In this document: piece by piece, positions 12,730-41,852 of the stretch
How positions within the stretch are numbered: position 1 is the first letter of the stretch
Layout: the number at the start of each line of letters is the position of its first letter
Assembly: GCA_036172245.1 (NCBI GenBank)
Contig: JAYWIR010000027.1
Coordinates: 372,001 to 436,000, forward strand
From: Raillietiella orientalis
Taxonomy: Eukaryota
Length of the DNA stretch: 64,000 nt
Reading direction: 5' to 3'
Position numbers and translations under genes: made by a program
Notes under the pieces: generated by a model
Database searches by the model: none
Seen by the model: the letters and a program-made list of their open reading frames with translations, nothing else
Told to the model about the DNA's origin: nothing

Positions 12730-13131
12730 CAGCGTCAACAAAAGGGACGTAGATGGGGAGATGCAGAATCGCCATCCATCTTCCCAAAACATCCCAGAAA
12801 GGGCATCGTCAATTCAAACCTCCTCAACAACCATCCCGGCACGCAAGCGGAACAGCCTCCAAGACCGCCGGTAGGAACTTCAGGCGGCCAAAGAACTCAC
12901 CTTTGGATTCCGCAAAGCTCAGACGGTTCACGTGCAGAAGTTCATAGTAGGGATGCAGAGACCGACAACAGACCCATGAGGACGACGAACACATTCCAAG
13001 AGCACCTTCCCACACGATAGAAACCATACAGCATCCTTGTCAAACAACACAGACAGCATGGCAAACAGAGCATACTCAACGGCTTCCACTCGTGGGAAAA
13101 GAAAGGCACACGATTAAGAAGAAACGATGGA
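12730..13131 (+). mobile_element. Possible decayed Penelope-like RT C-terminal/thumb remnant abutting the left arm
   Basis: Broken peptides NLLNNHP and RRTHS..H.AS..SMANRAY resemble the Penelope LN..HP and RK.TH..S.HP..RA motifs; by eye. Confidence 0.3.
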
Positions 13132-13599
13132 ATTCATCTGAGAACATCACCGGAGCGCACCGGAGTCCGCCTCAGAGGATTCGAGAGGACGAGAAGACCG
13201 ACAAAGAAGCTGAGAGGAGGAGCACGATTCCCACCATCGCTCTTGTTGTCCTTTCCGCAATACAGTCATTATCAGCAATTCAAGCGCACAAGGCAACCTT
13301 TTCTTTACGGGAACCCCCAACGCGGCAGCACCTCATTGCGGCCAACACAACGCAACCGACGGGTGCAACCTGGTCCCAGCAACTACGCTCGCCTGCTTCC
13401 AGCCAAGCCCCGCCCAACAACCTACAACCACCACCGGAGTGGAGCACTCGTCACACTCCCCATCCCACGAACGCATGGGGCAGCATCCCCTTGCGCGCAA
13501 GCCTACGCGCGCAGGCTGCTTCCCGAGTCCACACGATTGCCGGAATCCACCGGACCACGCGTCAACGCTCCCACCTCGTTTCGTGCCGGATGCTCACCC

Positions 13600-14164
13600 G
13601 ATCCTCCAGGCGTTTCGTCACGCGTTTCCGCAGACACGGAGACGACCATCGCTTCCTTACCGCGCATCGCCAAGCGACCTCCGACCTCGAAAGCGCAGCG
13701 CACCAGCGCGGCAGGCGACACCAGCAGGAGGAGTGAAAGACGCGAAGCCGAACACACACAGCGTCCACGCTTCCGCAGACGTCAGCAAGCAGCCCCTGCC
13801 GTCGTCCACTCGCTCCGACTCGCTCAAGACTTTCTCTGGACCTGCCGCCACCCCTCCAGCCTTCCCGCGAGCCGCGTCCTCTCTCGAAAGCCCGAAACTC
13901 CGGCTACGCTCCCGTGCCCAACTGGCGCGCCTTCCCTTCCCACTCCGACCCCAACGGCACAGCGAAAACGAACGGGGGACGGCCTCCCTCTCCAATGGTT
14001 TCGTTTCCCACCCGGAAAATGACATGCTACACTCGGATCTCGGCCTCGAATTCCAGAGAGCGCTCCAGCCACTTTCCTTCCAGCAGGCGTCAACAGCCCT
14101 CCCCTCCGTCCGTAGGGTCCGGACGGCAGATGGAGCGACCTCTTCGCATTCTCCCGAAAGCCCT
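13600..14164 (+). mobile_element. Possible Penelope-like linker/GIY-YIG 3' remnant in the arm (mirror ~36346-36910)
   Basis: SLPYRASPSDL and KQPLPSSTRS motifs; 14038-14164 is clearly homologous to 47288-47393(-). Confidence 0.4.
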
Positions 14165-16312
14165 TCCTCACCTCCCTCGGCACAACCCGTCATCGCCGAC
14201 GTCGACGCCTCCACTCTTCCTTCCTTACTTTCCGGCTCCGGAAGCCTCCGCCTACTCCATGCCCTCCAAGAGCGCCTCTCGTCTTCCATGCGAAGCATCC
14301 CAGCAATACCTGTTCGCGTCCGCAAACAAACCTCCCGTCACTCGGATCGCCGCAAAGACAGGTGCACGACACGGTCTTCCCACGCACGACGTGACGAAGG
14401 CGCGCGTGCGCTGGTCCCGTCGACAGTCCACGGAGTGTGTGGCCGCGCCGACGGCCCACCAACACGTCCCACCTCGAAAACGCTCACTGAGCCTGCCGAC
14501 GAGCCTGCCCACCCGCGCTCGCCGATGCCCACGGCCCGACACCGAAACGCGGAATGCCGCCTGGCGACTGTCCCCGCACGCGCATCATCGGCAGCCAACG
14601 CGCAAACATCTCTGCCTCCCTCCGTCGGCAAGCGCGCCTTCTTCTGCTTCTTTCCTTCTTCCGTTTCCCATGAGGGAGTTCCGCTCCTCCTCCCACGGAT
14701 TGCCTCCTTGCTCGCTGCCACTGGCGGATTCCCCCTCGTCCGGCATCCCAGAAGCCGTACGGCCATCTTCGCCGCACCCTGCTCAGCCCTGGCGCTCGCA
14801 CCTTTTCTCGCGTTCGGCGGAAGACGACGCGAGTTTCCGCCAGCGCGCCGCACCTCCCGCTCGCCGCTCGCCACGCGTCGGGACGCCGCGGAACGCCAAG
14901 CGTAGTACAGGAGACAACTTGCGCCCCCCGTCCCCAGAAGCAGGAGCCACGGCGCGACCGCAGCAGACGAAAGCCGCCTCTGTCTTCTCCTTCTCGCCGT
15001 GCACGCGAAGCGGAGACGGACGACCACGAAACCCGGTTGCTCGGCACACGCGCTGGACCACATACCGCACCGTCGGGCTGCTGAAATGCAAACCAGCAGA
15101 AAGGCAGGCAACCGACGACGCTACAGCCTCCCGATCGCCGACGGCGGACTCCCGTGCAAAAACAGCCGAGGGGCGCGATCCGCAGACCAGGATGCCCTTC
15201 GACCTCACGCAACTGCGCAGGTCCAGGCGGTCAGGAGACTGCAGCACGCATTCCTCACCGCTCCACCGCAGCCGCCGCATCGGACTCTCTCGCACCCGAC
15301 GTTTCCAGGATTCGCAGCGTCCCCATGCACACCAAACTGCCTTTCCGGCAGCCCAACGCACACGGCGCGAAAACGCCTCCCCACGAAACCAGGAAACCGG
15401 TTGGCCGCGAGCGCGACACGCTAGTCGCGAACAGCCGAACCGCCATCCGCGCGTCAGGCGCTCCCGACGACCCCCGTCTCGAATCCCAGCCGCCTTGGGG
15501 CTCCGTGCGACTCACAAGAGCGCAGCGGCACGCCGAGCCCCCAAAGGGTCGCGCGCCATCACCCCACCGAGAACACGTGCCAGAGAAGCGCCAAGACTGC
15601 CGTCAGAGACTCGCTCGCGTTCCCTGCCCGCTACGCGCAGACGGGCGAAAGGGGACGCGCCAACACGCCCGTTTAACTCCTCCTCTTTCGCACCACCCGC
15701 GTTGCGATCGATCGACGCCCACGCGCCCCCCGAGACGAACGCAGGGCGCAGCGCGTTCCGGCAGCACCTACCACGCTGCTGCCGAAACACCAGCGGGCGC
15801 GTCCCGCGATGCGCCGCCTTCGCCACTCGGGGAAGTCGGCCTCCCGCACGGACTCTCCTACCTGCGTGACCAACGCACGCCTCCAGCGCGCGTACCAGGA
15901 GCGTCGCCAAATCCGCCACCCGACGACCCGGTCGCGCCAAACTTCACCGGCGACGCCACCTGCCGCGCGGTTCGCCGGCGGCTCCGCGCCAGCATTCCTT
16001 CCCTCCCGTCAGCGACTGCTCGCGGAAGAGCCCAACCCGCGGCGCCCTGTCGAGAGGCCCAACGCGCGTCACGCCTCCCAGATCCACCAACACGCACACC
16101 CCCTGCTCGAAAACGTGCACCCAACACCGCAAGGAGGGCAGACCACAAGCAGGAACCTTCCTCCGCCAACTTCGTCCTCCTTTATTGCCATTTCAACAGG
16201 CCACTGCGGCATCTCATCCGCATCAGCCACGGCACATGCTACAGAGAGACGGAGCCACCTTTTGCCCGGAAACAGCGCCAGCGACACACAGCCAAGGCAT
16301 CTGCTCCCTGCC

Positions 16313-16377
16313 TCTTCTTCTTCTTCTTCTTCTTCATCATCATCATCATCATCCTCGTCGTCGTCGTCGTCGTCTTC
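16313..16377. repeat. Compound trinucleotide tract (CTT)n(CAT)n(CGT)n; mirror at ~34133-34197
   Basis: Seen directly. Confidence 0.9.
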
Positions 16378-16857
16378 GAGCGCAGCACCGTCCTCTGAGC
16401 CATGCGAGCGCCAGCTGCGCAACCATCCTGGCATCCCATCCGTGCTGGGGCATCCCGACGTCACACAACGCCACTCTCCGCACAGGGAAACGCCGGCGGC
16501 GGCCTTTGCAGCGGTCCCTCACAACCGCTGCGTTCGCCGCCACGTGCAAACAGCCACGTGCGCCAAGCGCACCAGGTGTCCACCGGCCACCGTGGCGCAT
16601 CCCGTCGGCGTGCCCGGCCAGCCTCTCCCTCTCGGGTACAACCGCGTGCGCTCCCCGGGAGGCAGAGCACCATCCAAGGCACCAAATCCGCTCCAGCTCC
16701 GATTCATTCGTCTCCTTCATCCTCGTCGCAACGCCAACGCCAGCCGTCCCGCCAACCGGCGTTCGCACCGGCGACGGACGCTCCCATGGCATCACAGACG
16801 AACCGTGTGCGTGCTGCGCTGCTTCTCCCGCGCAGGCACCCAGGTCAGCCCGCTCGG

Positions 16858-17528
16858 TCAACACAGCAAACAGCCGCTGCCGGGTTTCTCTTGCGCCAGC
16901 GATGACTCGTGCAGCGCCCAGGCCAGCGCCTCGTCGTCCGTCTACCGCGCAGTTCCGCCATTCGCAAATCCAACACCACGCTTACCGATCCCCCCTGCAG
17001 CTGCTGCCACCTCGCCGTTCCCTCGGTCTGCGGTGGCTGGGCGGCAGCGCAGCCGTGGTCCTGTCCGTGGCGATGCCTGATGCAGTACTGCTGCCCGCAT
17101 TGGCTGCAAGTGAACGGCACCAATTCCTTTCGGTGACATCCCCGCTCCTGGCAACGCCGCCCATCCTGGCGGAACCTCCGCTATCATCCACTCCGCAGCC
17201 TCCGACCCCCGCACCTTCTGCCGTTTCTGCTTCGGGCAACGTTGGTCCATGTGCTCGCTCACGACTGCATCCGCGAGCTCGCCTTTCTTCACGGGCACCG
17301 GCTCCTGGCAGATGGGGCACGTGGGCACTCGCACATCCAACAGGTGCATGCAAGCGCACCCGTGGTCTCTGTACTGGTAATGGTCTTTGCTGGCGCCCGT
17401 TACTGCGTGAACGGCGCGCGCATCCCCACTTACCAGAAACACTGCCCGCACAGGTTGCAGACGACCGGCAAGAAATCTGAAACGCACCACATAGCACACG
17501 CGGCCACGTGGACGCTCGCTCGCTCGCT

Positions 17529-17559
<31 letters not shown>

Positions 17560-18208
17560 CGGCCGTTTCAAACACCGCACGCCAACACGGGAAAGCAAGA
17601 ACAACACCCACCCACCCGCCTGCCTGCCCGCGTTCCCCTTCCCCCGCAGGTCGCGTTCCCCCCTCCACCCCCACCCCTCCCGAACGGACTCGCGCCGCCC
17701 TCCGGCCGCAAACACCAACATGCAGCCGCTCGCTCCTTCCTCTCACTTCCCCGCTGCAGTGCACACCGCACCCGCGCGATGGCAACAGCACTACGCAACA
17801 CCTCACCACCAGCCGTCCAGCCAGCCAGCCACGGACCCCGGCAACGGCGACAAGTTTCCCCCGGAGCGTCTTCCCCTACGAAACGTCAGGGCGTCGCCTG
17901 CCAAGCGCGCACACGAGCAAAACTCCGACAGCCACCAAGACACAAAGCACCCATTTCGGCTCCAGCCGCAGCTCTCGCCGCCCCACGCCCGCCCGCCTCT
18001 CCGCCTCCGCTACCCACCCACCCACGTTCGCGACACGCAAGCAGCACCGCATCCTTCCCGGACTGCCCACCCGAATGCATCCACCCCGCACGCGGCCTTC
18101 CACAACACACCATCCATGCAGACGGAGCGCACGCGCAGACAGTCAGTCAGTACCTAGCCGATTGCACCCGGCGAGCGAGCAGTGCCTTCCCACGTCGGGC
18201 AGCTCCAT
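16858..18208 (-). CDS. ZFAND2: AN1-type zinc finger protein 2 (AIRAP/AIRAPL-like), left-arm copy, 178 aa
   Basis: Exons 18208-18154, 17476-17434, 17389-17215, 17165-16986, 16941-16858. Translation MELPDVGRHCSLAGCNRLDFLPVVCNLCGQCFCKDH... has two AN1 fingers, a CPIC..H..C finger, a UIM-like DDEALAWALHES and a C-terminal CAAX-like CLLC. Confidence 0.92.
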
Positions 18209-18534
18209 GTCCCCGCGAGGGCACTTCCTCCGGACGTCGTCTTCGTTCGCGCGCCGACGACCCGCGCGTCCGCACGCCGTGCTCACCCGCGGCGGTGACG
18301 CAACGCGCCTGCGTCCACCAGTTGCTCCCGCCGCCCGCGGACGAGGTTGCTGGCGAACGCCGACGCGCGGCGCTGCCGGTCGACTTCCGCTTCGCGGCGA
18401 TGCACCGACGCGGGCGGGCGACCGACGACGGCACCCGCCCCGTTGACGTCATCGCTCGCTCCGACACGCGCTCCAGCCACGCGCTGGACTGCTGCTGCTT
18501 TCCCCCGGCGGACGACAACCGCGAGCCGCACGCA

Positions 18535-18537
<3 letters not shown>

Positions 18538-18565
<28 letters not shown>
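18538..18565. repeat. (CT)14 microsatellite; the mirror copy is (AG)13 at 31946-31971
   Basis: Counted directly. Confidence 0.9.
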
Positions 18566-18571
<6 letters not shown>

Positions 18572-20427
18572 GTTTCTCGCGGCAACGGACGCCGCCGCCA
18601 TGGCGACGACGATATCCACGCACGCGCGCGCGCAGGCTGCCTCACGGATTTCGCACACACGCCGTGCGCGCTCGCGCGTCCCACCTGGCGCTGCAACGAC
18701 GTCCAGCGCCATCTCCAGATGCTGCCGATTTCGCTCGCGAGCTGCCGCTTCGCACCGGCAGAGGGGAGACCGCACGAAACCTTCCCGCCAGCAGAGCTCC
18801 CCCGCAGTTGCTGCGCGTGGCCTTCCGCCTGCGAATGGCCGCTCCTTCCGCAAAAGGTGCCGTTCCGCAAGAAGCGTCGCGCGTGCGTCTCCCAAGCGAC
18901 AGCGTTCGTGGTGCTCATCCGCCGGTTCGCATCGCAGCCTTTCCATTTCCAGCAAGGAGCAGAGGCAGCAGGGGCGAACGGGACGAGGACGCCCGCAGCC
19001 CTGAGCGTTTCGACCCGCGAGCGCAGCACTTCTTCGATCGGATCCCGGGAGCGCAGCGCTCCCGAGGTCACCCGCGCCTTCCGCAGCACCGCCCGCTCGC
19101 CATCTCTGAAGTGCTCGTCGCCGCGTCTACTCGGAGAAATTCCTGAAAGTTGCCTGAGGCTCTTCCCTCTCAGTCGCAAGCGAGCGCTGGCATGGAAAGG
19201 GAGGAAGAGGATTCGGGATTTTCTCGCCGAGAATCGCCGCCGCCAGGAGCAGCGCCGGGCGGGCGTTTCGCTCCGGGGCGCCCCCTGCGAGCGAAGCCGA
19301 CGGACAGGCCCGACGGCACGCAGAGAGCATTCCGCTCGCCGCGTGTGCAGGGCAGGCGCACGCTGCCTGCGAGAAGGCGGCCGGCGGCAAAACGGAGCCG
19401 CACGGCACCGCGGAGAGCTTATGAAAACGGGCAGCGGCTCCGGGGGGCGCACCAAACCTGCCCGGATCCTGGGCAGTCCCCTTCCGCGAGAGGAGTCCCG
19501 TGAAAGTGTGCGACAGGGCGCGGGACGCTGCTGGACCGCCATGCCACGCGAGAGCGGCCACCCCAGCATGCCGAAGAGGTCGCTCGATGGCGGCGACCTC
19601 GGGCTGCCGAACGGCTGGGACACTCGCTCGAAAGCGACCCGTGGGCGGAAGGTGCTGCGGGCGTTTCTTTCAGCCCCTTCCGCCTCCCGGAGAGTGCACG
19701 AAAAACGAAAAGGAGCCTCTCGCGATCGACTTCGCGATTGCTCCCAGCCACCCGAGGATCCGGACCATGCAGACTGCTGAAACCAGGAATCCTCCTCGCC
19801 TCGTCGCGAGCGTGGACCGAAGGGCACGACGTCCCTTTGAACCACGAGGCGCGCCCGGCAGCTGCGAAGAGGAAGCTGCCCGCGATTCCCGGTGAAGCCA
19901 AAGGACGCGTTTCGGCTGCCAAAGTCCGCCGCGGCGAGCGGTTGCCCTGCAAACGAGACGGAGGCAGCCCTGGGGGCAGCCCGCTCCACGGGCGACTGCT
20001 GGTGGTCGCGGGTGCTGCGGTCGCGTCGACCGCGCGCACCTCCGAGAACCGCGCCGGCACGTGGCCGGACGCGCACGCAAAGGAGCATCCGAGGCGGCAC
20101 GTGGGCGCAAAAGGACTGCCGCTCGTGGGTCGGCCGTCGATCCTGCCGCTGCCTCAGGGCTTTTGGTCCGCTGCCACGTCTCTTCCCACCGCCGCCCTCC
20201 TCCGTAGATGGCGCACGCGCGCTTGCGCGGTGTGTGCCAACGCAACGGAGGCTGCCGGCGGAGCCGCAAGTGCACACGAGGCACGAGGGCCGCGGTGCTG
20301 CTGCTCCCGCATCTTCTCCTCGGGAAAGTCCCGTTCCCCTGTCCTCAGGTCGGGAGCGCGCACGCCCGGCCTCTTACCCGGCATGCACGCCAATGAGCTG
20401 CCGCTGCGCCGAGCGCTGCGTGCTTTC

Positions 20428-20433
20428 TTTATT
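20428..20433 (-). promoter_or_regulatory. Putative polyadenylation signal AATAAA of the unrecognised gene (mirror 30074-30079 on +)
   Basis: tttatt about 80 nt downstream of the TGA at 20515. Confidence 0.55.
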
Positions 20434-20514
20434 CGCTCTTGCGAGGTCGCCCACCCACGGCCTCGAGGGATGGCGGGTTTGTGGGCGCAACCCGCGGTGC
20501 TCGCCAACCGCCCA

Positions 20515-23500
20515 TCAGCGCGTGGACGGTCCGACGGCGGCCTCTTCCGCGGGGGGACCAACATCCACGACGTAGCCCTCATCTTCCGATTTCGTGACGT
20601 GGATGGGGATGCAATTCTTCAGTTTCTCGAGTATTGCGCCGATGATCTCGTCGACGGTAGTGAAGTTCTTCCTGGAAAGAGAGGGGGGAGCGACTGAGTA
20701 TCCGCAGGCCGACCGGGCAGGGAGTTCCGTCACCCGAACGTCCCGAGCTCCTGGTTGACGCGGGCGCGTTGCTACGGGGAAGGCTGGTGGCGTGGCCGAA
20801 GGGATGAGGGCTGCTCACAGCGGGCCGGGAGGAGCGGCACCTCCTGCCACCACTGCGCTGCCAGAAACTACCGCGGGCACACCCCTCCTTCCGTCACCCC
20901 TGTCTCACCGTCCCGGGGGCGAGTGGGGGAGAAGAGGCGATTTCCGGCCCAATCCGCGCGCCGCCAGCTGCGGGCCGGACCCATCCTTCCGGCAGGGAAC
21001 CGACGCCCGTGGAGCAGGAAGCCGAGCTTCCTGTTCTCTTGTCGGGGATCGCCCGCGGAACGCGAGGATGCGCCCCTTCCGGAAGCGTACCCCAGACGTT
21101 GGTCGTTGGCGCCTCGCACGTGGCGCCGCCGCGCGCCTGGACGCGAGGGGACCGCCCGCATCCGCGCGGCAGTGCGCGACGGCCTCCGACCCGTGCGGTT
21201 CGCCGCTCGCACGACCGAAGTCGCCGAGCGGTCTGCGAAACCTCCCGTCATCCAGAGCGGAGGAGTTGCGGCGACCGCGCGGCAGCCGCTGACCGTTCGC
21301 CGCAGCCGCGCCCGCAGCAGCAGCTCTGCGGCGGACATGAGACTCGCGCGGAACGCGTGCGACGCGAGGGAAGGCGCGCACACGGCTGCCGAGCGCCCTG
21401 CCAGGGCGTTAGCGCCAGGAAGCGCCTGTGCGGGCGGCCCCCGCGCACCTACGCGTCCCTCGAGCGAACCGAAGTACGCGCGTGTCGCATGAGAAAGGTC
21501 GGGCAGCAGCGAGAGGCTTTCCGCGCACGCACGCAGGACGAGGAAAATTGCCTTTCGCCGCGCGGTGCGTCTCGAGAGCCGGGAGAGCGACATCCCTGCT
21601 TCTCCCGTGGCCAGATTCCAGGCGCCGACGGTCCCATCCGCGCGGGAGGCGGTCGTGGCGGCTGGCTTCCTGCGAGGCGATCGGCGATCCCTTCCCCTCT
21701 CCACCTCCGAAGGGATGCGCCCATCCCTTCCCTTCATCGCTTTCTTGGGCTGTGGCCACCCGCGCTCCGTGCGCGCACGCACCCACTCGGCACGCGTGTC
21801 GCGCATCCAGCACTCTCCTGGCGACGAGTGCGCGCAAGCCGACGAACGTTGCGGGTGAGCTGTCTGTCGCTCCTCCTCCCCAGAGAAAGGCGGGAATCCT
21901 CCTTAACCTTTGGGCCACGCACACCCGGTCGTCCTCCTCGACCACCCTCGCCGGCGCGTGGGGCAGCCAAAAGGAAACGATCGCTCCGGCGGGAAGAGGC
22001 GACCGCACGGTCTCGCCTGCGCCGAAGTTGCGCAGGCACGGAGCCGCCCGCTTGTTGGATCGGGGACTCGTGCGGGGCGCAGCGACGCGAAGCGCCCGCG
22101 CGCTTCCCAGTCTCGCCCTGTTTGCACGCCCCTTCTTTGCACCGCTCTCTCTCGGGAAGCGTCGAGTACGGAGCGCGGAGGAGGGGCCGGCTCCACTTCG
22201 ACCAGCGCGCCCCGGGGGCAAGAATCCTTCGGTTCGGGGACGCACCCCGAGACGCCGAACCGGCAGGGAAGCGTGGTGGGTGCCGGGGGAGGCGGGGGGA
22301 GAGGTAGCGCCACGTCTGGGGAAATCCTCCCGACGCATCCATCCCGTCTTTGGGCTTTCGCCCCCTCCTTCGAGGGCGAGGAGGAGGCGGTGCTCCCGGA
22401 GCGAAGAGAGCCGAAGCTCCTTGGCGCATCCGCTTCCGCTTTCCGTCGTCGCTCCCGGAAAAATGGGGTTCCCTCGCTTCGCCGAGGTCCTCGCCCTTGC
22501 CGGTCGCCACGCTGGGAGCATACGGGAAGCGTCTATGGTGAAACTCGGCTTCCTCCTCCCCGCCCCGCACCCCCGTCTCCGTCCTGGCCTCGCGTCACGC
22601 GCGTTCCTTGCCGAACTGCACGCGGTCCTGAAGTGCAGCGACGGCGTGGGGGTACCGGAGACGTTCCCCAGCTCGGGATACGGCGGGACACGTGGGTCCA
22701 CGGAGTTGGCACGCGTGCGCGGTGGAAGGCGAAGTGTGTGGAGCAGCAGAGGCCGTCGGCGGAAGCGACGCAGCGTGCGCAAGCGGAACGAAAGTGGCAG
22801 CGGTGCGGTGCGGCAGTGATGGCGTTGGGTTCTCCGTGAAGCGACAGCGCCGGCGTCGACGTGAGCAGCGGACGAGGACCCGCGGAACGAATGCAGCGGC
22901 ATCCGGCTTTCTCGTTCGAGACGAAGAGAGGAATTCCGGGAAAGGTGCTGCTGCGCGCGGATGCGGCGGAGACGCGTCGGTGGCGGCGAGGACTCCGGGC
23001 GAGGACCTGGCGTGCGGAGAGAGAGGGAGGCGAGGGAGAGCGGGGACGAAAGGGGGGGGTCACGCCTCGCCGGCACGGGAGGAAAAGAGGTCGCTCTCCA
23101 CCTGTTGGCATTCGCCATTCACGCCTCCTGAGTGCCAGAGAATCGCTCAAACTGCTTACTTATCGTTGGGATCTTCTGTCGTCTCTCTCAGGTCCACCTG
23201 CTCCTGATCCATGCATCCTTGCAATGCATTGAGGAATTCTCTGAGGAGCGAATGCAGCGTTTTGTGGTTGATTCTGGAACGAGAGTCAAGTCTGTGACAC
23301 TGGACAATAGGGAGGTGCATGGAGGGATTCGGGGGCAAAGATGATCTTCAGACACCTCGGGTGCAGCCTCTGATTACGTGATGTTTGGGGAAGGATACGG
23401 TTGAGCCTCAATCTGCTCTCCTGGATGGATTTCGCCCTGGTTTCTGAGCGATGGTGCGATTATTCCTTGCAGCGGAACTCCACCTCTAAACTTTCAGCCG

Positions 23501-29992: not shown

Positions 29993-31939
29993 TGGGCGGT
30001 TGGCGAGCACCGCGGGTTGCGCCCACAAACCCGCCATCCCTCGAGGCCGTGGGTGGGCGACCTCGCAAGAGCGAATAAAGAAAGCACGCAGCGCTCGGCG
30101 CAGCGGCAGCTCATTGGCGTGCATGCCGGGTAAGAGGCCGGGCGTGCGCGCTCCCGACCTGAGGACAGGGGAACGGGACTTTCCCGAGGAGAAGATGCGG
30201 GAGCAGCAGCACCGCGGCCCTCGTGCCTCGTGTGCACTTGCGGCTCCGCCGGCAGCCTCCGTTGCGTTGGCACACACCGCGCAAGCGCGCGTGCGCCATC
30301 TACGGAGGAGGGCGGCGGTGGGAAGAGACGTGGCAGCGGACCAAAAGCCCTGAGGCAGCGGCAGGATCGACGGCCGACCCACGAGCGGCAGTCCTTTTGC
30401 GCCCACGTGCCGCCTCGGATGCTCCTTTGCGTGCGCGTCCGGCCACGTGCCGGCGCGGTTCTCGGAGGTGCGCGCGGTCGACGCGACCGCAGCACCCGCG
30501 ACCACCAGCAGTCGCCCGTGGAGCGGGCTGCCCCCAGGGCTGCCTCCGTCTCGTTTGCAGGGCAACCGCTCGCCGCGGCGGACTTTGGCAGCCGAAACGC
30601 GTCCTTTGGCTTCACCGGGAATCGCGGGCAGCTTCCTCTTCGCAGCTGCCGGGCGCGCCTCGTGGTTCAAAGGGACGTCGTGCCCTTCGGTCCACGCTCG
30701 CGACGAGGCGAGGAGGATTCCTGGTTTCAGCAGTCTGCATGGTCCGGATCCTCGGGTGGCTGGGAGCAATCGCGAAGTCGATCGCGAGAGGCTCCTTTTC
30801 GTTTTTCGTGCACTCTCCGGGGAGGCGGGAAGGGGCTGAAAGAAACGCCCGCAGCACCTTCCGCCCACGGGTCGCTTTCTTGCGAGTGTCCCAGCCGTTC
30901 GGCAGCCCGAGGTCGCCGCCATCGAGCGACCTTTTCGGCATGCTGGGGTGGGCCGCTCTCGCGTGGCATGGCGGTCCAGCAGCGTCCCGCGCCCTGTCGC
31001 ACACTTCGGGCGGGACTCCTCTCGCGGAAGGGGACTGCCCAGGATCCGGGCAGGTTTGGTGCGCCCCCTGGAGCCGCTGCCCGTTTTCATGCTTCCTCCG
31101 CGGTGCCGTGCGGCTCCGTTTTGCCGCCGGCCGCCTTCTCGCAGGCAGCGTGCGCCTGCCCTGCACACGCGGCGAGCGGAATGCTCTCTGCGTGCCGTCG
31201 GGCCTGTCCGTCGGCTTCGCTCGCAGGGGGCGCCCCGGAGCGAAACGCCCGCCCGGCGCTGCTCCTGGCGGCGGCGATTCTCGGCGAGAAAATCCCGAAT
31301 CCTCTTCCTCCCTTTCCATGCCAGCGCTCGCTTGCGACTGAGAGGGAAGAGCCTCAGGCAACTTTCAGGAATTTCTCCGAGTAGACGCGGCGACGAGCAC
31401 TTCAGAGATGGCGAGCGGGCGGTGCTGCGGAAGGCGCGGGTGACCTCGGGAGCGCTGCGCTCCCGGGATCCGATCGAAGAAGTGCTGCGCTCGCGGGTCG
31501 AAACGCTCAGGGCTGCGGGCGTCCTCGTCCCGTTCGCCCCTGCTGCCTCTGCTCCTTGCTGGAAATGGAAAGGCTGCGATGCGAACCGGCGGATGAGCAC
31601 CACGAACGCTGTCGCTTGGGAGACGCACGCGCGACGCTTCTTGCGGAACGGCACCTTTTGCGGAAGGAGCGGCCATTCGCAGGCGGAAGGCCACGCGCAG
31701 CAACTGCGGGGGAGCTCTGCTGGCGGGAAGGTTTCGTGCGGTCTCCCCTCTGCCGGTGCGAAGCGGCAGCTCGCGAGCGAAATCGGCAGCATCTGGAGAT
31801 GGCGCTGGACGTCGTTGCAGCGCCAGGTGGGACGCGCGAGCGCGCACGGCGTGTGTGCGAAATCCGTGAGGCAGCCTGCGCGCGCGCGTGCGTGGATATC
31901 GTCGTCGCCATGGCGGCGGCGTCCGTTGCCGCGAGAAAC

Positions 31940-31971
<32 letters not shown>

Positions 31972-32300
31972 GGATGCGTGCGGCTCGCGGTTGTCGTCCG
32001 CCGGGGGAAAGCAGCAGCAGTCCAGCGCGTGGCTGGAGCGCGTGTCGGAGCGAGCGATGACGTCAACGGGGCGGGTGCCGTCGTCGGTCGCCCGCCCGCG
32101 TCGGTGCATCGCCGCGAAGCGGAAGTCGACCGGCAGCGCCGCGCGTCGGCGTTCGCCAGCAACCTCGTCCGCGGGCGGCGGGAGCAACTGGTGGACGCAG
32201 GCGCGTTGCGTCACCGCCGCGGGTGAGCACGGCGTGCGGACGCGCGGGTCGTCGGCGCGCGAACGAAGACGACGTCCGGAGGAAGTGCCCTCGCGGGGAC

Positions 32301-32950
32301 ATGGAGCTGCCCGACGTGGGAAGGCACTGCTCGCTCGCCGGGTGCAATCGGCTAGGTACTGACTGACTGTCTGCGCGTGCGCTCCGTCTGCATGGATGGT
32401 GTGTTGTGGAAGGCCGCGTGCGGGGTGGATGCATTCGGGTGGGCAGTCCGGGAAGGATGCGGTGCTGCTTGCGTGTCGCGAACGTGGGTGGGTGGGTAGC
32501 GGAGGCGGAGAGGCGGGCGGGCGTGGGGCGGCGAGCCTGGAGATGCATGCCGAAATGGGTGCTTTGTGTCTTGGTGGCTGTCGGAGTTTTGCTCGTGTGC
32601 GCGCTTGGCGTGGCAGGCGACGCCCTGACGTTTCGTAGGGGAAGACGCTCCGGGGAAACTTGTCGCCGTTGCCGGGTTCCGTGGCTGGCTGGCTGGACGG
32701 CCGGTGGTGAGGTTGCGTAGTGCTGCTGCCATCGCGCGGGTGCGGTGTGCACTGCAGCGGGAAGGAGAGGAAGCGAGCGAGCGGCTGCATGTTGGTGTTT
32801 GCGGCCGGAGGGCGGCGCGAGTCCGTTCGGGAGGGGTGGGGGTGGAGGGGGGAACGCGACCTGCGGGGGAAGGGGAACGCGGGCAGGCAGGCGGGTGGGT
32901 GGGTGTTGTTCTTGCTTTCCCGTGTTGGCGTGCGGTGTTTGAAACGGCCG

Positions 32951-32981
<31 letters not shown>

Positions 32982-33652
32982 AGCGAGCGAGCGAGCGTCC
33001 ACGTGGCCGCGTGTGCTATGTGGTGCGTTTCAGATTTCTTGCCGGTCGTCTGCAACCTGTGCGGGCAGTGTTTCTGGTAAGTGGGGATGCGCGCGCCGTT
33101 CACGCAGTAACGGGCGCCAGCAAAGACCATTACCAGTACAGAGACCACGGGTGCGCTTGCATGCACCTGTTGGATGTGCGAGTGCCCACGTGCCCCATCT
33201 GCCAGGAGCCGGTGCCCGTGAAGAAAGGCGAGCTCGCGGATGCAGTCGTGAGCGAGCACATGGACCAACGTTGCCCGAAGCAGAAACGGCAGAAGGTGCG
33301 GGGGTCGGAGGCTGCGGAGTGGATGATAGCGGAGGTTCCGCCAGGATGGGCGGCGTTGCCAGGAGCGGGGATGTCACCGAAAGGAATTGGTGCCGTTCAC
33401 TTGCAGCCAATGCGGGCAGCAGTACTGCATCAGGCATCGCCACGGACAGGACCACGGCTGCGCTGCCGCCCAGCCACCGCAGACCGAGGGAACGGCGAGG
33501 TGGCAGCAGCTGCAGGGGGGATCGGTAAGCGTGGTGTTGGATTTGCGAATGGCGGAACTGCGCGGTAGACGGACGACGAGGCGCTGGCCTGGGCGCTGCA
33601 CGAGTCATCGCTGGCGCAAGAGAAACCCGGCAGCGGCTGTTTGCTGTGTTGA
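32301..33652 (+). CDS. ZFAND2: AN1-type zinc finger protein 2 (AIRAP/AIRAPL-like), right-arm copy, 178 aa
   Basis: Exons 32301-32355, 33034-33076, 33121-33295, 33345-33524, 33569-33652; no coding difference from the left copy noticed. Confidence 0.92.
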
Positions 33653-36600
33653 CCGAGCGGGCTGACCTGGGTGCCTGCGCGGGAGAAGCAGCGCAGCACG
33701 CACACGGTTCGTCTGTGATGCCATGGGAGCGTCCGTCGCCGGTGCGAACGCCGGTTGGCGGGACGGCTGGCGTTGGCGTTGCGACGAGGATGAAGGAGAC
33801 GAATGAATCGGAGCTGGAGCGGATTTGGTGCCTTGGATGGTGCTCTGCCTCCCGGGGAGCGCACGCGGTTGTACCCTAGAGGGAGAGGCTGGCCGGGCAC
33901 GCCGACGGGATGCGCCACGGTGGCCGGTGGACACCTGGTGCGCTTGGCGCACGTGGCTGTTTGCACGTGGCGGCGAACGCAGCGGTTGTGAGGGACCGCT
34001 GCAAAGGCCGCCGCCGGCGTTTCCCTGTGCGGAGAGTGGCGTTGTGTGACGTCGGGATGCCCCAGCACGGATGGGATGCCAGGATGGTTGCGCAGCTGGC
34101 GCTCGCATGGCTCAGAGGACGGTGCTGCGCTCGAAGACGACGACGACGACGACGAGGATGATGATGATGATGATGAAGAAGAAGAAGAAGAAGAAGAGGC
34201 AGGGAGCAGATGCCTTGGCTGTGTGTCGCTGGCGCTGTTTCCGGGCAAAAGGTGGCTCCGTCTCTCTGTAGCATGTGCCGTGGCTGATGCGGATGAGATG
34301 CCGCAGTGGCCTGTTGAAATGGCAATAAAGGAGGACGAAGTTGGCGGAGGAAGGTTCCTGCTTGTGGTCTGCCCTCCTTGCGGTGTTGGGTGCACGTTTT
34401 CGAGCAGGGGGTGTGCGTGTTGGTGGATCTGGGAGGCGTGACGCGCGTTGGGCCTCTCGACAGGGCGCCGCGGGTTGGGCTCTTCCGCGAGCAGTCGCTG
34501 ACGGGAGGGAAGGAATGCTGGCGCGGAGCCGCCGGCGAACCGCGCGGCAGGTGGCGTCGCCGGTGAAGTTTGGAGCGACCGGGTCGTCGGGTGGCGGATT
34601 TGGCGACGCTCCTGGTACGCGCGCTGGAGGCGTGCGTTGGTCACGCAGGTAGGAGAGTCCGTGCGGGAGGCCGACTTCCCCGAGTGGCGAAGGCGGCGCA
34701 TCGCGGGACGCGCCCGCTGGTGTTTCGGCAGCAGCGTGGTAGGTGCTGCCGGAACGCGCTGCGCCCTGCGTTCGTCTCGGGGGGCGCGTGGGCGTCGATC
34801 GATCGCAACGCGGGTGGTGCGAAAGAGGAGGAGTTAAACGGGCGTGTTGGCGCGTCCCCTTTCGCCCGTCTGCGCGTAGCGGGCAGGGAACGCGAGCGAG
34901 TCTCTGACGGCAGTCTTGGCGCTTCTCTGGCACGTGTTCTCGGTGGGGTGATGGCGCGCGACCCTTTGGGGGCTCGGCGTGCCGCTGCGCTCTTGTGAGT
35001 CGCACGGAGCCCCAAGGCGGCTGGGATTCGAGACGGGGGTCGTCGGGAGCGCCTGACGCGCGGATGGCGGTTCGGCTGTTCGCGACTAGCGTGTCGCGCT
35101 CGCGGCCAACCGGTTTCCTGGTTTCGTGGGGAGGCGTTTTCGCGCCGTGTGCGTTGGGCTGCCGGAAAGGCAGTTTGGTGTGCATGGGGACGCTGCGAAT
35201 CCTGGAAACGTCGGGTGCGAGAGAGTCCGATGCGGCGGCTGCGGTGGAGCGGTGAGGAATGCGTGCTGCAGTCTCCTGACCGCCTGGACCTGCGCAGTTG
35301 CGTGAGGTCGAAGGGCATCCTGGTCTGCGGATCGCGCCCCTCGGCTGTTTTTGCACGGGAGTCCGCCGTCGGCGATCGGGAGGCTGTAGCGTCGTCGGTT
35401 GCCTGCCTTTCTGCTGGTTTGCATTTCAGCAGCCCGACGGTGCGGTATGTGGTCCAGCGCGTGTGCCGAGCAACCGGGTTTCGTGGTCGTCCGTCTCCGC
35501 TTCGCGTGCACGGCGAGAAGGAGAAGACAGAGGCGGCTTTCGTCTGCTGCGGTCGCGCCGTGGCTCCTGCTTCTGGGGACGGGGGGCGCAAGTTGTCTCC
35601 TGTACTACGCTTGGCGTTCCGCGGCGTCCCGACGCGTGGCGAGCGGCGAGCGGGAGGTGCGGCGCGCTGGCGGAAACTCGCGTCGTCTTCCGCCGAACGC
35701 GAGAAAAGGTGCGAGCGCCAGGGCTGAGCAGGGTGCGGCGAAGATGGCCGTACGGCTTCTGGGATGCCGGACGAGGGGGAATCCGCCAGTGGCAGCGAGC
35801 AAGGAGGCAATCCGTGGGAGGAGGAGCGGAACTCCCTCATGGGAAACGGAAGAAGGAAAGAAGCAGAAGAAGGCGCGCTTGCCGACGGAGGGAGGCAGAG
35901 ATGTTTGCGCGTTGGCTGCCGATGATGCGCGTGCGGGGACAGTCGCCAGGCGGCATTCCGCGTTTCGGTGTCGGGCCGTGGGCATCGGCGAGCGCGGGTG
36001 GGCAGGCTCGTCGGCAGGCTCAGTGAGCGTTTTCGAGGTGGGACGTGTTGGTGGGCCGTCGGCGCGGCCACACACTCCGTGGACTGTCGACGGGACCAGC
36101 GCACGCGCGCCTTCGTCACGTCGTGCGTGGGAAGACCGTGTCGTGCACCTGTCTTTGCGGCGATCCGAGTGACGGGAGGTTTGTTTGCGGACGCGAACAG
36201 GTATTGCTGGGATGCTTCGCATGGAAGACGAGAGGCGCTCTTGGAGGGCATGGAGTAGGCGGAGGCTTCCGGAGCCGGAAAGTAAGGAAGGAAGAGTGGA
36301 GGCGTCGACGTCGGCGATGACGGGTTGTGCCGAGGGAGGTGAGGAAGGGCTTTCGGGAGAATGCGAAGAGGTCGCTCCATCTGCCGTCCGGACCCTACGG
36401 ACGGAGGGGAGGGCTGTTGACGCCTGCTGGAAGGAAAGTGGCTGGAGCGCTCTCTGGAATTCGAGGCCGAGATCCGAGTGTAGCATGTCATTTGCCGGGT
36501 GGGAAACGAAACCATTGGAGAGGGAGGCCGTCCCCCGTTCGTTTTCGCTGTGCCGTTGGGGTCGGAGTGGGAAGGGAAGGCGCGCCAGTTGGGCACGGGA

Positions 36601-37368
36601 GCGTAGCCGGAGTTTCGGGCTTTCGAGAGAGGACGCGGCCCGCGGGAAGGCTGGAGGGGTGGCGGCAGGTCCAGAGAAAGTCTTGAGCGAGTCGGAGCGA
36701 GTGGACGACGGCAGGGGCTGCTTGCTGACGTCTGCGGAAGCGTGGACGCTGTGTGTGTTCGGCTTCGCGTCTTTCACTCCTCCTGCTGGTGTCGCCTGCC
36801 GCGCTGGTGCGCTGCGCTTTCGAGGTCGGAGGTCGCTTGGCGATGCGCGGTAAGGAAGCGATGGTCGTCTCCGTGTCTGCGGAAACGCGTGACGAAACGC
36901 CTGGAGGATCGGGTGAGCATCCGGCACGAAACGAGGTGGGAGCGTTGACGCGTGGTCCGGTGGATTCCGGCAATCGTGTGGACTCGGGAAGCAGCCTGCG
37001 CGCGTAGGCTTGCGGGCAAGGGGATGCTGCCCCATGCGTTCGTGGGATGGGGAGTGTGACGAGTGGTGCACTCCGGTGGTGGTTGTAGGTTGTTGGGCGG
37101 GGCTTGGCTGGAAGCAGGCGAGCGTAGTTGCTGGGACCAGGTTGCACCCGTCGGTTGCGTTGTGTTGGCCGCAATGAGGTGCTGCCGCGTTGGGGGTTCC
37201 CGTAAAGAAAAGGTTGCCTTGTGCGCTTGAATTGCTGATAATGACTGTATTGCGGAAAGGACAACAAGAGCGATGGTGGGAATCGTGCTCCTCCTCTCAG
37301 CTTCTTTGTCGGTCTTCTCGTCCTCTCGAATCCTCTGAGGCGGACTCCGGTGCGCTCCGGTGATGTTC

Positions 37369-40300
37369 TCAGATGAATGCCACCGTTGCTTCAAATCCCG
37401 TGTCTCCGTTGATCACTCGGCTGTTCCAGTGGAGGATCATAAAGTTGGAGTTGGATCGCACTAGGCTGTGGCTCGGTAGTTGTTCATTGTCGCAGAACCT
37501 GTAGAAATGAATTTTGATTTAATTGGTTTTTGCTATTACGGCGGTTATTGACATCTTAGTGCTTGTGATTGCCAGGGCTTGTGGTATCGTGTGTTTGCCA
37601 ACGTACTTGTAGAGCATGTGTGCACTCCGGATATGAGAGTTTTCTTTTTTTTTTTTGTGAGTAACCTCTTTTTTTTTTTTTTTTTTTTGACAATCTCTGT
37701 TGTAAGAGATTGGTTTTTGAAGAATCTTTCACGTTACTGTGGCAACCGTCATGCATGGCATGTCTGTTTGGCTGCACAGGAAGTATCGGTGATTGTATTT
37801 TCTGTCTGTTTGACGGCGGCATCGTTTCAAGAGCTCTAATTTTTTTTTTTTCTGTTGGGAAGGGATTCCCTTCAGAAAGGCAAACGCGCATCAAGAAGTT
37901 TTCCATGCACCCAGGGCCCTTGGACAAGGGAAGGGAACACCCGCCTGGATATCGTACGCGATAAGTCCTTCCTCCCTTGCTGCAAGCCGCGTGTGTTTTG
38001 GCTTGTGTTTGCGTTCCTTTCGAGCTTTAGAATGGCAAACTCACGTTTGTCCCCTGTACATATGGTTTGCACGGATTGTCAGACTTTCATAGTCACAGCT
38101 GGTGGAACCGCTGTCATCCAAGAAGAAGGTGACGTGGTGGAAGGTGACTTGCACGCGCTTTCCCATCGGCGCAACGATATGCCATAAGCAGCCTCCTGTT
38201 TCTTGGTGGTTTTTCGGCGTGGCGATGGAAGCGCCATCTTCCGTGACCTTTCTTCCGCATTTCATGGCATTTGGGGCTGGAAAAGATACAAACATGATGG
38301 TGCACTCTTTCATTCTATGGCTGCAGGGGGCTCTCGACGCGTGCAGGCAGCAGCGCTCGTTGCGCCAAGACGGAGAGGAACTCACGATAGTAGCCTCCGG
38401 TTTGCCTTTCGCAGTACTGCCCCTCTGTGCCTTGCGGGCAAACACATTTGCAGTCAGGTCCCAGGTAACCATAATTTTTGCAAGCTGTTTTCTGGCTGCA
38501 TTTTTGGCTCCATAGATCTGAAATCATTCTCCCGTGGTTTGGCACGGAGGCAGCTCCCCCTACCTATGCAATTGTAGGCCGTGTTGATGGTTAGCAGATC
38601 GAAATGGCTAAAATTTGTATTGAACGTACTATCCAGGAGGTATTGAAGTGATGGATCTTTGGTTATTATCGTTTCGTTTCCGTTTTTGCTGAAGAACTGG
38701 AAAAGAAATCCCTTGCTCCAGAAGATATTTCGGTAGCTAGTGGTATTCCCGATCCTGCTGTGCGAGCATGAACGAGGAGGAAGGGGAGCGGAGGACGCTT
38801 CGTCTCTTGCGAATCGCGCCAGAATTGAGTCTCCCCACCCGATTGGTTGTCAGGGTCCCTCCCCCACCGTAGCGAAGTAACCAGGATGGTTCCTTGGCAC
38901 TCCCTTGTGTTCCCCTTCTTGAACGCAATCCGGGAACACAAAGCTGTTCAATCCCATCTTCATCGATTTGGGTTCCTTTCTGTTGTCGAATTCCGTTCAT
39001 TTCCCGAAACGTACCGTTTCCAGGACACTTCCGGGAATGGACGAATTGACGTTTCCCTTTCTTGGAAACGGAGATTGCTTCGCCACTTGGGGAAGCGACT
39101 TTGTCATTCTCTCAGCTCCTCCTGTAGTCCAGCCAAGGCTTCACGTTTCCCATCGAAAGCGACTCCCTAACGGTTTCGTGGTATTCACCCCATATCGAAG
39201 ATCCCGATGAAGTGTGATTTCGAGATGGCACGGAACGCTTGGCAGACATTCGTGTTGGATGGGCAGCGGTGCGACGTCGCTACGCATCTCGACGGCTCAC
39301 GTGGTTACTTTTGGGTCTTCGAGTTTCAGGTGGCAGCATTTGCCTGAATGACATCACACAACCTCTCCGATCTTGCCCCATCGACTGCCTATTCCAAAGT
39401 GGGCACCGAACGATTGCTCTACGAAGAACGCGGAGCAGCGTGCGATGTCGCATATATCCTTTTGGTGTTCAGCTTTCCTTACTCTTCTTTGGCTATTTGA
39501 TTACCAGTGGAATGACCTTGTCTCCTACGATGAGAGCGTCTCGATCCATTGTACTGTTGCTTCTTTGTATTCGTCTTCTTTATCCCCAGTTTCAAAAAAG
39601 AGACGTAGGTTCCCTGAGTGAAGGCGTTCGAGGCGTTCAGCCCACAAGCAGTTCGCCTGGTGCTGTGGACACGTTCGTCACTGCCGCATGCGCAGTCGCC
39701 TGTGCTGCTTCGTAAGTCACTCTGCAACGTCATGCATAGCGTTGTTCCTTCCGATTGGGAGCAGGAAGCAAGTCTCAGGGTCTTCCCCTAAATGCATCCT
39801 CGCTGTTTCCCTACTTGGAAAGGCCACTGTTTGCTCCATTGGGTCTCACTCGGACCCTCGTTCGCGACATCACGCTTTCGAGCAACCTCATCATGTAACC
39901 CCCACTAGTCTTCTGGAACATTTCAGATGAACTCCTGCGCTGATGTCAGCCCGCGAGGATGTTTACGTCTCAATCCGCTGTTTTGGTGTGCTTTCTTGTA
40001 CCTTGCAGATGACAAAACCTTGGCGCATTGTGCAGGTGCAAAGTCAGCTCGGACACTTTGACACTGCCCATCTCCGGTGTGTGTGTGTGTGTGTGTGTGT
40101 GGGAGTGCTTCTCTGGGAACACCTTGGTGTTGGTAGGTCTTGAGTTAGAAGAAAGTTGGTGTCCACGGGTGCACAAATTTACGATGGAATGATGAAAGAG
40201 TTCAGCATAGTGTGGTTCCTGGTGTTTACGCAAATAGGAGTGCACTTCACTGCCCAATGATAGTGGCCTCTTCAGCTCCACGTTCTGTGTGCACGACTTC

Positions 40301-41819: not shown

Positions 41820-41852
<33 letters not shown>

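Follow-up and report, generated by a model that had tools for sequence, protein, structure and literature searches.

The closest described counterparts of the structure reported here are the primate X-chromosome palindromes, whose arms (median 37 kb) show a GC excess of only 4-5 points and whose GC equilibrium was given as 60.9% versus 39.9%, corresponding to an odds ratio of 2.35 (Jackson et al. 2021, PMC8981503), and human Y palindrome P6, with a GC content of 38.8 versus 37.0% (Hallast et al. 2013, PMC3723533); these primate GC figures, taken from excerpts of both reports, are medians, and the per-palindrome tables of either may hold larger steps. Whether high GC follows from palindrome formation or instead favours it was a question left open in the excerpt of PMC8981503. 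Human fold-back inverted duplications have a median spacer of 3,428 bp in the cited part of that study (Hermetz et al. 2014, PMC3907307). Among small invertebrates, palindromes were described in Folsomia candida (PMC5490193) and surveyed in Adineta vaga (PMC7953838), those of the latter being artefacts according to the passage cited from PMC8494291. Inverted chimeras produced by amplification (MDA) usually span a distance of <10 kb, with a peak at 250-300 nt and an overlap of 5-8 nt (excerpt of PMC9984789).

The window that we analysed (the whole stretch of 64,000 nucleotides from a Raillietiella orientalis contig) contains a structure of this known kind, and what is unusual is the taxon and the strength of the GC effect. 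As in the primate X palindromes and P6 as excerpted, large inverted arms that are >99% identical enclose a unique spacer, the arms are genic, and their GC content lies above that of the flanks; unlike in the primate X palindromes, the arms are 10 kb long, the GC excess is 11-14 points and the genome is arthropod-like. The cargo is a housekeeping proteostasis gene here and a testis gene in the primate palindromes cited. Fold-back inverted duplications share with this locus an inverted copy, a few-kb unduplicated spacer (4.1 kb here) and perhaps short homology at a junction; the cases in the cited part of PMC3907307 are de novo and megabase-sized with a terminal deletion or translocation at the end, whereas the present palindrome is interstitial, 10 kb in size and rejoined to unique sequence on both sides. 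Like the Drosophila staggered-break inversions in the sections cited from Ranz et al. 2007 (PMC1885836), the locus combines two native with two novel junctions and one intact with one truncated gene copy, and has a duplication at one breakpoint only; the Drosophila duplications, however, reach at most ~1.9 kb and are decaying, at ~88% identity, compared with 10 kb at >99% here, and in this locus, unlike in those inversions, the duplicated part is larger than the inverted part. With Folsomia and Adineta it has in common gene-bearing inverted duplications in a small invertebrate for which conversion is proposed, and the same risk of artefact; the palindromes of those two species hold blocks of collinear genes whose synonymous divergence varies widely, number 16-19 per genome, and are cited here from passages that report no GC step at arm edges.

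Self-BLAST of the window yielded a single inverted match (13118-23201 versus 37392-27303, 99.06% over 10,115 columns), within which exact identity between the arms began at 13132/37378 and stopped at 23201/27303. Together with the arm-to-arm alignment, in which 10,010 of 10,102 columns were identical (99.1%), this confirmed the coordinates given in a preliminary description of the locus, which had reported near-identical arms of ~10 kb around a 4.1-kb spacer. The window contained no N, and both palindrome flanks were unique by self-BLAST. The assembled architecture was as follows:

13132..23201: left arm, 10,070 bp, GC 0.672, CpG observed/expected 1.16 (self-BLAST, alignment, composition)
23202..27302: single-copy spacer, 4,101 bp, GC 0.566, CpG observed/expected 0.93
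27303..37378: right arm, 10,076 bp, left-arm sequence in reverse complement
13104..13131, plus strand: continuation of homology at the outer end, 27-28 bp, imperfect, aligned with the astacin coding sequence 37379-37405 in reverse complement
14039..14164, plus strand: old repeat fragment present in both arms, related to 47393-47288 outside the arms (82/106 columns identical)

The spacer held the upstream part of an unnamed gene, here called gene G, and decayed LINE-like frames recognized by eye only, with a Pfam match above the cut-off in 0 of 68 spacer ORFs; no relevant Pfam match was obtained for 36 junction and spacer ORFs. Scans of the window for tRNA and Rfam families gave 0 hits each, as did exact 24-base scans of metagenome contigs with a sequence near the inner new join and one from ZFAND2 exon 3. 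At the outer end, the imperfect 27-28 bp match had an anchored score of 22, which none of 1,500 random pairs reached (maximum 16.5), and it may represent either decayed arm homology or homeology used for a template switch; past 28 bp, DNA similarity was no better than that of shuffles. The inner end showed no decayed homology (score 2, equalled by 35% of random pairs). Exact microhomology at the inner join would be hidden within the arm. Two further candidates for the left flank, a Penelope-like fragment and a decayed astacin exon of greater length, were rejected, with protein scores (19-37) within background. On the idea that the left flank and the right end of the spacer had been neighbours before the event, an element common to both was sought and none was found.

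Gene models at the locus were as follows:

16858..18208, minus strand: ZFAND2B/AIRAPL-like gene, left copy, 183 aa; coding exons 18208-18154, 17476-17434, 17389-17215, 17180-16986 and 16941-16858
32301..33652, plus strand: ZFAND2B/AIRAPL-like gene, right copy, identical protein; exons 32301-32355, 33034-33076, 33121-33295, 33330-33524 and 33569-33652
20515..23273, minus strand: gene G, predicted from splice, phase and poly(A) evidence only
26914..27011, minus strand: gene G, candidate promoter and non-coding first exon (by eye, putative)
27303..29992, plus strand: 5'-truncated right-arm copy of gene G, beginning mid-exon and lacking an in-frame ATG and the upstream exon part
37369..43651, minus strand: astacin-EGF-CUB gene of the right flank, with the outer junction 37378/9 inside its last exon (37498-37369)

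ZFAND2B is a general, housekeeping proteostasis gene. The complete, outward-pointing ZFAND2 gene that had been noted in each arm was borne out, both copies having five exons, GT-AG introns, the same 183-aa product and Pfam domains, with an AATAAA at 16181-16186 (left) and at 34324 (right). The product has two AN1 fingers (zf-AN1 PF01428, E=8e-12), a ZFAND2 C2H2 finger (zf-C2H2_ZFAND2 PF25403, E=3e-12) and a Cys at position -4; the last exon also encodes a stretch that was read by eye as a putative UIM and that had no Pfam match. The N-terminal 130 residues could be aligned in 137 of 150 fetched relatives, 39 of which also carry the Cys at -4. An unfiltered search with exon 4 returned 1,210 proteins, the best match being 47% identical, and a word search with exon 3 gave 0 of 5 candidates. 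ZFAND2B/AIRAPL is a proteasome- and p97-associated adaptor, and the present product resembles it, as presented in the excerpt of PMC4626058, in its two AN1 zinc fingers, C2H2 finger and terminal Cys-x-x-x reminiscent of a CAAX box, and differs from it in being shorter (183 aa).

Gene continuity identifies two of the four junctions as native: 23201/2 is crossed by gene G and 37378/9 by the astacin gene, which leaves 13131/2 and 27302/3 as the new joins. The exon of gene G at 23273-23160 has an open frame through the inner junction and a GT donor; its last exon (20671-20515) is phase-matched and is followed by an AATAAA at 20428-20433, and its candidate promoter, read by eye, has a TATA-like box at 27004-27011, an initiator-like sequence near 26980 and a donor after 26914. 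Homologs of gene G were found in 0 of 28 candidates, with no usable Atlas match. The last two codons, stop and 3' UTR of the astacin gene lie inside the arm, and alignment of its end to a paralog continues through 37378/9 (E=1e-12). The locus thus assembled holds two intact ZFAND2B genes, one intact astacin gene and, regardless of spacer orientation, one intact copy of gene G.

Of all blocks in the window, the arm was richest in GC and CpG (GC 0.67 versus 0.54-0.57), and its compositional limits lay close to the arm ends:

13307..23082: left-arm block of high GC/CpG; its change points lie 175 bp and 119 bp in from the ends of that arm
27421..37202: right-arm block of high GC/CpG; change points here are 119 bp and 176 bp in from the ends

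When the best-fitting GC block was sought in 54 kb of single-copy sequence, its edges were offset from the arm ends by +178 and -118 bp, a coincidence with a naive chance of ~1e-4 for two uniform breakpoints, calculated once the pattern had been seen. At the native junctions, GC stepped up into the arm by 0.137 and 0.146 per kb, a step of at least 0.13 occurring at 0.33% of 916 background positions, and the CpG step at the inner junction (0.069) exceeded the background maximum of 0.053. Within gene G, the in-arm intron had a GC content of 0.696 versus 0.572 for the upstream region in the spacer (chi-square p=1e-22). Among 2.5-kb stretches, the minimum GC inside the block (0.658) was higher than the maximum outside it (0.634), and non-coding GC was 0.681 in the arm versus 0.52-0.57 across six outside regions. 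The resulting GC odds ratio of arm to background, 1.6-2.3, is close to the primate equilibrium value of 2.35 cited from the excerpt of PMC8981503. Under the assumption of flanks at equilibrium, the GC content of the arm would need at least 0.11-0.16 substitutions per site at total bias and 0.4-0.8 at the human bias of 0.70, and therefore it cannot be recent.

Other measures of composition were less distinct. Fourfold sites of ZFAND2 had a GC content of 0.80 (n=79), which is not clearly above that of two genes outside the arms, NMDAR1 (0.71, an approximate value since the alignment stretches include some intron) and the other astacin (0.77). Relative to its outside relative, the repeat fragment had GC in the arm at 10 sites and AT at 4 (p=0.18; only a 126-bp fragment is comparable), with control pairs at 13:7 and 28:21, and a three-way repeat comparison was no better aligned than shuffles. 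The nearest relatives are distant, the best NMDAR1 matches being 41-52% identical. An amino-acid shift toward GC-rich codons was set aside as evidence, because the GARP values (ZFAND2 0.289 versus 0.219 in relatives; NMDAR1 0.276 versus 0.232) come from relative sets that differ between the genes. The terminal 119-176 bp of the arms are low in GC, yet identical between the arms; constraint on the signals located there (a stop, AATACA at 13259, an exon and a donor) is a putative explanation.

The preliminary description had the arms differing by scattered substitutions and small indels; both kinds of change were found, but they were not scattered, 58 of 68 lying in four patches that total 1,614 bp:

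17700..18000 (left-arm coordinates): patch 1, ZFAND2 intron 1
19400..19700 (left-arm coordinates): patch 2
20990..21360 (left-arm coordinates): patch 3, gene G intron
22040..22680 (left-arm coordinates): patch 4, gene G intron

The two examples it had given were located, gcaata/gcacta at 20634 (Ile/Leu in gene G) and (CT)14/(AG)13 at 18538, a microsatellite one unit apart. Outside the patches arm identity was ~99.9%, and half of all difference events were indels. The patches held 33 indels and 25 substitutions, as against 15 and 78 in the older repeats of the window (Fisher p=3e-7), and of the 9 isolated substitutions 8 were transversions and 1 a transition, compared with 52 transitions and 26 transversions in the older repeats (p=0.001 against that ratio; p=0.07 against 40% transitions). 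Since even the isolated substitutions are skewed in this way, no natural divergence between the arms was demonstrated. Most of the visible differences look like consensus errors, and the true arm divergence is thus probably ~0.1%. Coding indels numbered 0 of 34, with ~2.5 expected (p=0.07, not significant). A dependence of the patches on local GC found no support (Spearman 0.20, p=0.21). Frameshifting was also seen in a histone H1 gene nearby.

Taken from the sequence as assembled, the locus is probably an inverted segmental duplication that is both real and old and that behaves as mammalian sex-chromosome palindromes do (probability of about 0.65). The GC edges point to long-lasting GC-biased conversion between the arms, which predicts them; neither an amplification chimera nor a fresh duplication does so. 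A real inverted duplication, of a kind kept by conversion, had already been proposed; that proposal gains the GC/CpG edges and the 27-28 bp homology as partial support. We infer conversion and age from composition rather than from outgroups or population data; the GC step itself was observed, and biased conversion would be its cause. Gene continuity suggests an ancestral single-copy order of spacer (reversed), right arm and right flank, to which an inverted copy of the 10-kb segment would have been added ~4 kb upstream, either by a replication template switch followed by return to the fork or by an inversion with one staggered break; under a template switch, the present orientation of the spacer would require one later flip or be arbitrary in the assembly. 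The arms would then pair and repair each other, which may keep them nearly identical down to functionless pieces such as the truncated gene G and the astacin 3' end. If conversion favoured G/C over A/T, freely evolving arm sites would drift to GC and CpG would build up, with no such drift expected in the spacer, in the flanks or at arm-end signals under constraint.

An inverted duplication that is real but young (or an inversion with one breakpoint duplicated) and that copied a pre-existing GC island, such as a former recombination hotspot, is an unlikely alternative, even though it accommodates the sharp ends cutting inside exons and the lack of convincing natural divergence between the arms, allows the 27-28 bp match to be template-switch homeology, and draws on the argument in the excerpt of PMC8981503 that GC-rich DNA is more prone to palindrome formation. 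It does not explain, however, why both breakpoints lie 119-176 bp beyond the pair of composition edges that is strongest in the 54 kb; breaks at a hotspot would be expected inside it, and the Drosophila staggered-break duplications of at most ~1.9 kb in the sections of PMC1885836 are a fifth of the arm length.

An artefact, in which a single-copy segment was written twice and the joins 13131/2 and 27302/3 are absent from the animal, was at first judged slightly better than even on account of the error-like differences; it was lowered after the composition analysis and is now considered quite unlikely. It could have arisen through fold-back chimeras of whole-genome amplification or through a mis-oriented spacer contig extended from both sides, and it too predicts exactly two native and two novel junctions. 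The arm differences resemble long-read errors (indel-rich patches, with a frameshifted histone H1 nearby), but real inverted duplications also reduce nanopore accuracy in the second arm (excerpt of PMC7229812), and the patches consequently do not separate the two readings. Assemblies of amplified DNA contain many misassemblies, with 1,753 cases in a 121-Mb C. elegans assembly in the part cited of bioRxiv 10.64898/2026.06.11.730069, and the A. vaga palindromes turned out to be artefacts (passage of PMC8494291). Two independent chimeric joins would nevertheless each need to coincide with an edge of the GC block. The outer join spans 14.2 kb versus a usual chimera limit of <10 kb, and the inner join spans 4.1 kb versus a chimera peak of 250-300 nt (excerpt of PMC9984789), distances to be read with the caveat that long-read assemblies would enrich for long spacers; the 4,101-bp spacer fits the in vivo fold-back median (PMC3907307, part cited) better than that peak. 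In addition, unique sequence lies on either side of the palindrome, no N occurs in the window and the assembled piece continues over at least 1.58 Mb.

A transposable element of fold-back or TIR type that had very long inverted repeats at its termini and had captured host genes would account for inverted terminal arms around a unique centre and for the decayed retroelement-like frames seen by eye in the spacer, and is very improbable: as the preliminary description had held in arguing against a TIR transposon, there was no target-site duplication (no direct repeat of at least 4 bp common to the 31 bp outside either outer end) and no intact transposase (families absent from 100 scanned ORFs, comprising 68 of 91 in the spacer region, 27 in the arm and 5 in the right flank), and host genes extend from the right flank and spacer into the arms, crossing two of the four junctions, so the palindrome does not represent a unit inserted at an empty site.

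If the old, conversion-maintained palindrome is real, it would provide a small-scale natural experiment for studying GC-biased gene conversion beyond mammals. The step within gene G, from 57% GC upstream to 70% in the intron, is 2-3 times the arm-flank difference of primate X palindromes in the excerpt of PMC8981503, and the locus bears on the question of order left open there, because GC and arm edges coincide to ~150 bp. We found no report of a GC-enriched palindrome of this kind from an invertebrate in the open-access literature, which is weak evidence. Composition may also serve as a read-free triage for assembled palindromes, since arms with a composition of their own are unlikely to be fresh chimeras; if the locus is an artefact, it cautions against scoring the palindromes of this assembly as duplicated genes. 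As a broader and doubtful extension, many housekeeping genes of this genome might reside in old palindromes near GC equilibrium, in which case composition steps would map past and present arms to ~150 bp, GC islands without a partner would be collapsed or orphaned arms, and arm-to-arm repair would be a main recombination route genome-wide, as on the mammalian Y.

A single long inverted self-BLAST match, 99.06% identical over 10,115 columns, bore out the near-identical inverted arms proposed in the preliminary description and their limits, with exact identity spanning 13132/37378 to 23201/27303.

13132-23201, left arm (10,070 bp)
23202-27302, spacer (4,101 bp)
27303-37378, right arm (10,076 bp)

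Self-BLAST found no other repeat longer than 400 bp in the window, and tRNA and Rfam scans of the window returned no families. Smaller repeats comprised a 160-bp pair (228-387 and 3917-4076, 98% alike), a 390-bp pair (60708-61098 and 63498-63870, 79% alike) and an older dispersed family (44539-44671, 47556-47288 and 14039-14164) with one fragment inside the arms. Assembled sequence continues for at least 1.58 Mb past the window, whose gene content is that of a compact, GC-rich animal genome; a search with one exon of the NMDA receptor subunit 1 (NMDAR1) gene in the left flank yielded 60 relatives, most of them from insects and no more than 41-52% identical, so the window is arthropod-like and the database lacks a close relative.

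5950-11580 (-), NMDAR1 gene, unusually divergent, with many short introns and its 5' end ~1.5 kb from junction 13131/2
16318-16378 and its mirror image, compound run of the trinucleotides CTT, CAT and CGT downstream of ZFAND2, identical between arms though of a slippage-prone kind
16858-18208 (-) and 32301-33652 (+), ZFAND2 copies of the left and right arms
20515-23273 (-), gene G, a predicted unnamed gene
23500-25900 (-), broken spacer frames without Pfam support that we take, by eye, to resemble LINE reverse-transcriptase motifs
27004-27011, candidate TATA-like box upstream of gene G
37369-43651 (-) and about 52370-57030 (-), tandem astacin-EGF-CUB paralogs of the same exon layout with intact zinc-binding motifs, differing strongly in third-position GC (0.56 vs 0.81)
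46107-46823 (+), histone H1-like gene (PF00538, E=6e-18) outside the palindrome, with one frameshift past the globular domain and another in the lysine-rich tail (pseudogene or sequence error)

As had been described, each arm holds a complete, outward-pointing ZFAND2 gene. Each copy has five exons, GT-AG introns and a downstream AATAAA. The two products are identical (183 aa) and include a stretch that we take to be UIM-like, for which a Pfam search gave no match; their C-terminus has a Cys at -4, as does that of AIRAPL/ZFAND2B (PMC4626058). One intron measures 677 nt, and those within 16858-17476 and 33034-33652 are only 34-44 nt long, a very small size for an animal spliceosome to handle. 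The last exon of the right-flank astacin gene crosses junction 37378/9 and aligns through it with the paralog at 52.4 kb (41% identity, E=1e-12), which places the final two codons, the stop codon and the 3' UTR inside the arm. In gene G, an exon stays open in frame across 23201/2 and is followed by a GT donor and a phase-matched last exon, with an AATAAA 82-87 bp past the stop that is the sole other one on that strand; because homolog searches returned no match, the gene is treated as a prediction. Since genes run across 23201/2 and 37378/9, these are, on the gene models, the native junctions and 13131/2 and 27302/3 the new joins, a pattern in which the right-arm copy of G is truncated and only the tail of the astacin gene is present in the left arm. 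Transcription of the truncated copy could also start from the TATA-like box, which reads identically on both strands and has the novel junction 290 bp away.

The arms had a GC content of 0.672 and a CpG observed/expected ratio of 1.16, compared with 0.566 and 0.93 for the spacer and 0.572 and 0.539 (CpG 0.82-0.83) for the flanks. GC change points fell at 13307, 23082, 27421 and 37202, in each case 119-176 bp inward of the corresponding arm end. In single-copy sequence no change points were stronger than the arm-edge pair, with log-likelihood gains of 208 and 79 (the one taken next gained 21.5, and one later pair reached 53), and the limits of the best GC block in 54 kb lay +178 and -118 bp away from those of the arm. 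This edge coincidence was tested post hoc, and its naive chance of 1e-4 presumes uniform, independent breakpoints. GC steps at the native junctions were +0.137 and +0.146 per kb, a size attained at 0.33% of 916 background positions. Within the arm the gene G intron had a GC of 0.696, against 0.572 for the gene's upstream stretch in the spacer; the last astacin intron, just outside the arm, was at 0.429. At one end the low-GC arm margin contains the stop codon of the astacin gene together with a candidate AATACA signal, and at the other it contains an exon plus a donor; such elements, if constrained, would resist GC drift. ZFAND2 fourfold sites (GC 0.80) were not clearly above those of outside genes (0.71, 0.77; flanking astacin 0.54), which tells against GC-biased conversion. 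TpA was strongly depleted across the whole window (observed/expected 0.35-0.53), most in the arms (0.22).

We favor, with a probability of roughly 0.65, an old, real palindrome subject to GC-biased conversion. The non-coding arm/background GC odds ratio of 1.6-2.3 would at equilibrium correspond to a bias of 0.62-0.70, and a two-copy model arrives at the GC level only after 0.11-0.16 or more substitutions per site if the bias is total, or 0.4-0.8 if it is 0.70, so that under biased conversion the palindrome would be old; ongoing conversion between the arms would keep them alike despite this age. The repeat fragment shared with 47.3 kb, the only polarisable sequence, showed 10 arm-GC and 4 arm-AT changes (p=0.18; controls 13:7 and 28:21), which counts against this reading; a three-way alignment proved unreliable. 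Outside the outer arm end lies an imperfect match of 27-28 bp, with a score that none of 1,500 random pairs attained; it is consistent with an eroded arm edge and could also be homeology of a template switch. Also against the preferred reading, no decayed homology was found at the inner end, nor any further out than these 28 bp at the outer one. A recent duplication of a GC island that already existed seems an unlikely origin of the arms, although PMC8981503 suggests that palindromes may arise more easily in GC-rich DNA.

The ancestral order would have been reversed spacer, right arm, right flank, brought to the present order by an inverted copy inserted ~4 kb upstream and a subsequent spacer flip. 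Staggered-break inversion may be another route; such duplications are given as at most about 1.9 kb (PMC1885836). The spacer orientation, as assembled, may be arbitrary.

The arms differ by 68 events (34 indels, 19 transversions and 15 transitions). The small indels and substitutions reported earlier were thus present, but they are not scattered: 58 lie in four patches (17700-18000, 19400-19700, 20990-21360 and 22040-22680 in left-arm coordinates) totaling 1,614 bp, at 3.6 events per 100 bp and all within the inner 5.5 kb of the arm, and 10 in the other 8,456 bp. Patch positions did not track local GC. The ratio of indels to substitutions was 33:25 in the patches and 15:78 in three older window repeats (Fisher p=3e-7), and an indel-rich spectrum of this kind marks long-read consensus error rather than ordinary divergence; alternatively, the patches may be repair-associated mutation clusters. 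The nine isolated substitutions, eight of them transversions, look unnatural too; true divergence is therefore at most 0.9% and may be zero, with a value of about 0.1% the most probable. Real inverted duplications also lower nanopore base-call quality in the second arm (PMC7229812), so error-like differences alone do not decide whether the palindrome is real.

An artefact of assembly or amplification is, in our estimate, slightly less probable still than a young copy. Misjoins are described as abundant in amplified-DNA assemblies (bioRxiv 10.64898/2026.06.11.730069) and the Adineta palindromes turned out to be artefacts (PMC8494291), but distances of 4.1 and 14.2 kb would be needed here, as against a chimeric peak of 250-300 nt, usually <10 kb (PMC9984789), and nothing would cause two chance joins to hit the edges of a GC block. 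A mobile element is highly improbable: the palindrome ends lack a target-site duplication and Pfam found no transposase family among 100 ORFs scanned, both as first described.

A conversion-maintained palindrome, the reading we prefer, is of a known kind, and by analogy the structure would work like one, sharing its geometry and GC excess. In primate X palindromes, conversion is reported to favor GC about 70:30, with arms 4-5 GC points above flanks and equilibria of 60.9% vs 39.9% (PMC8981503); for human P6, GC bias is described along with tracts of kilobase length and infrequent inversions (PMC3723533). For scale, a gene-based survey that used a different method counted 16 palindromes in Folsomia candida and 19 in the old Adineta assembly, against 0-4 in another 21 genomes (PMC7953838). 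The present palindrome stands out for its taxon, for carrying a housekeeping gene, and for how large and sharp its GC step is.
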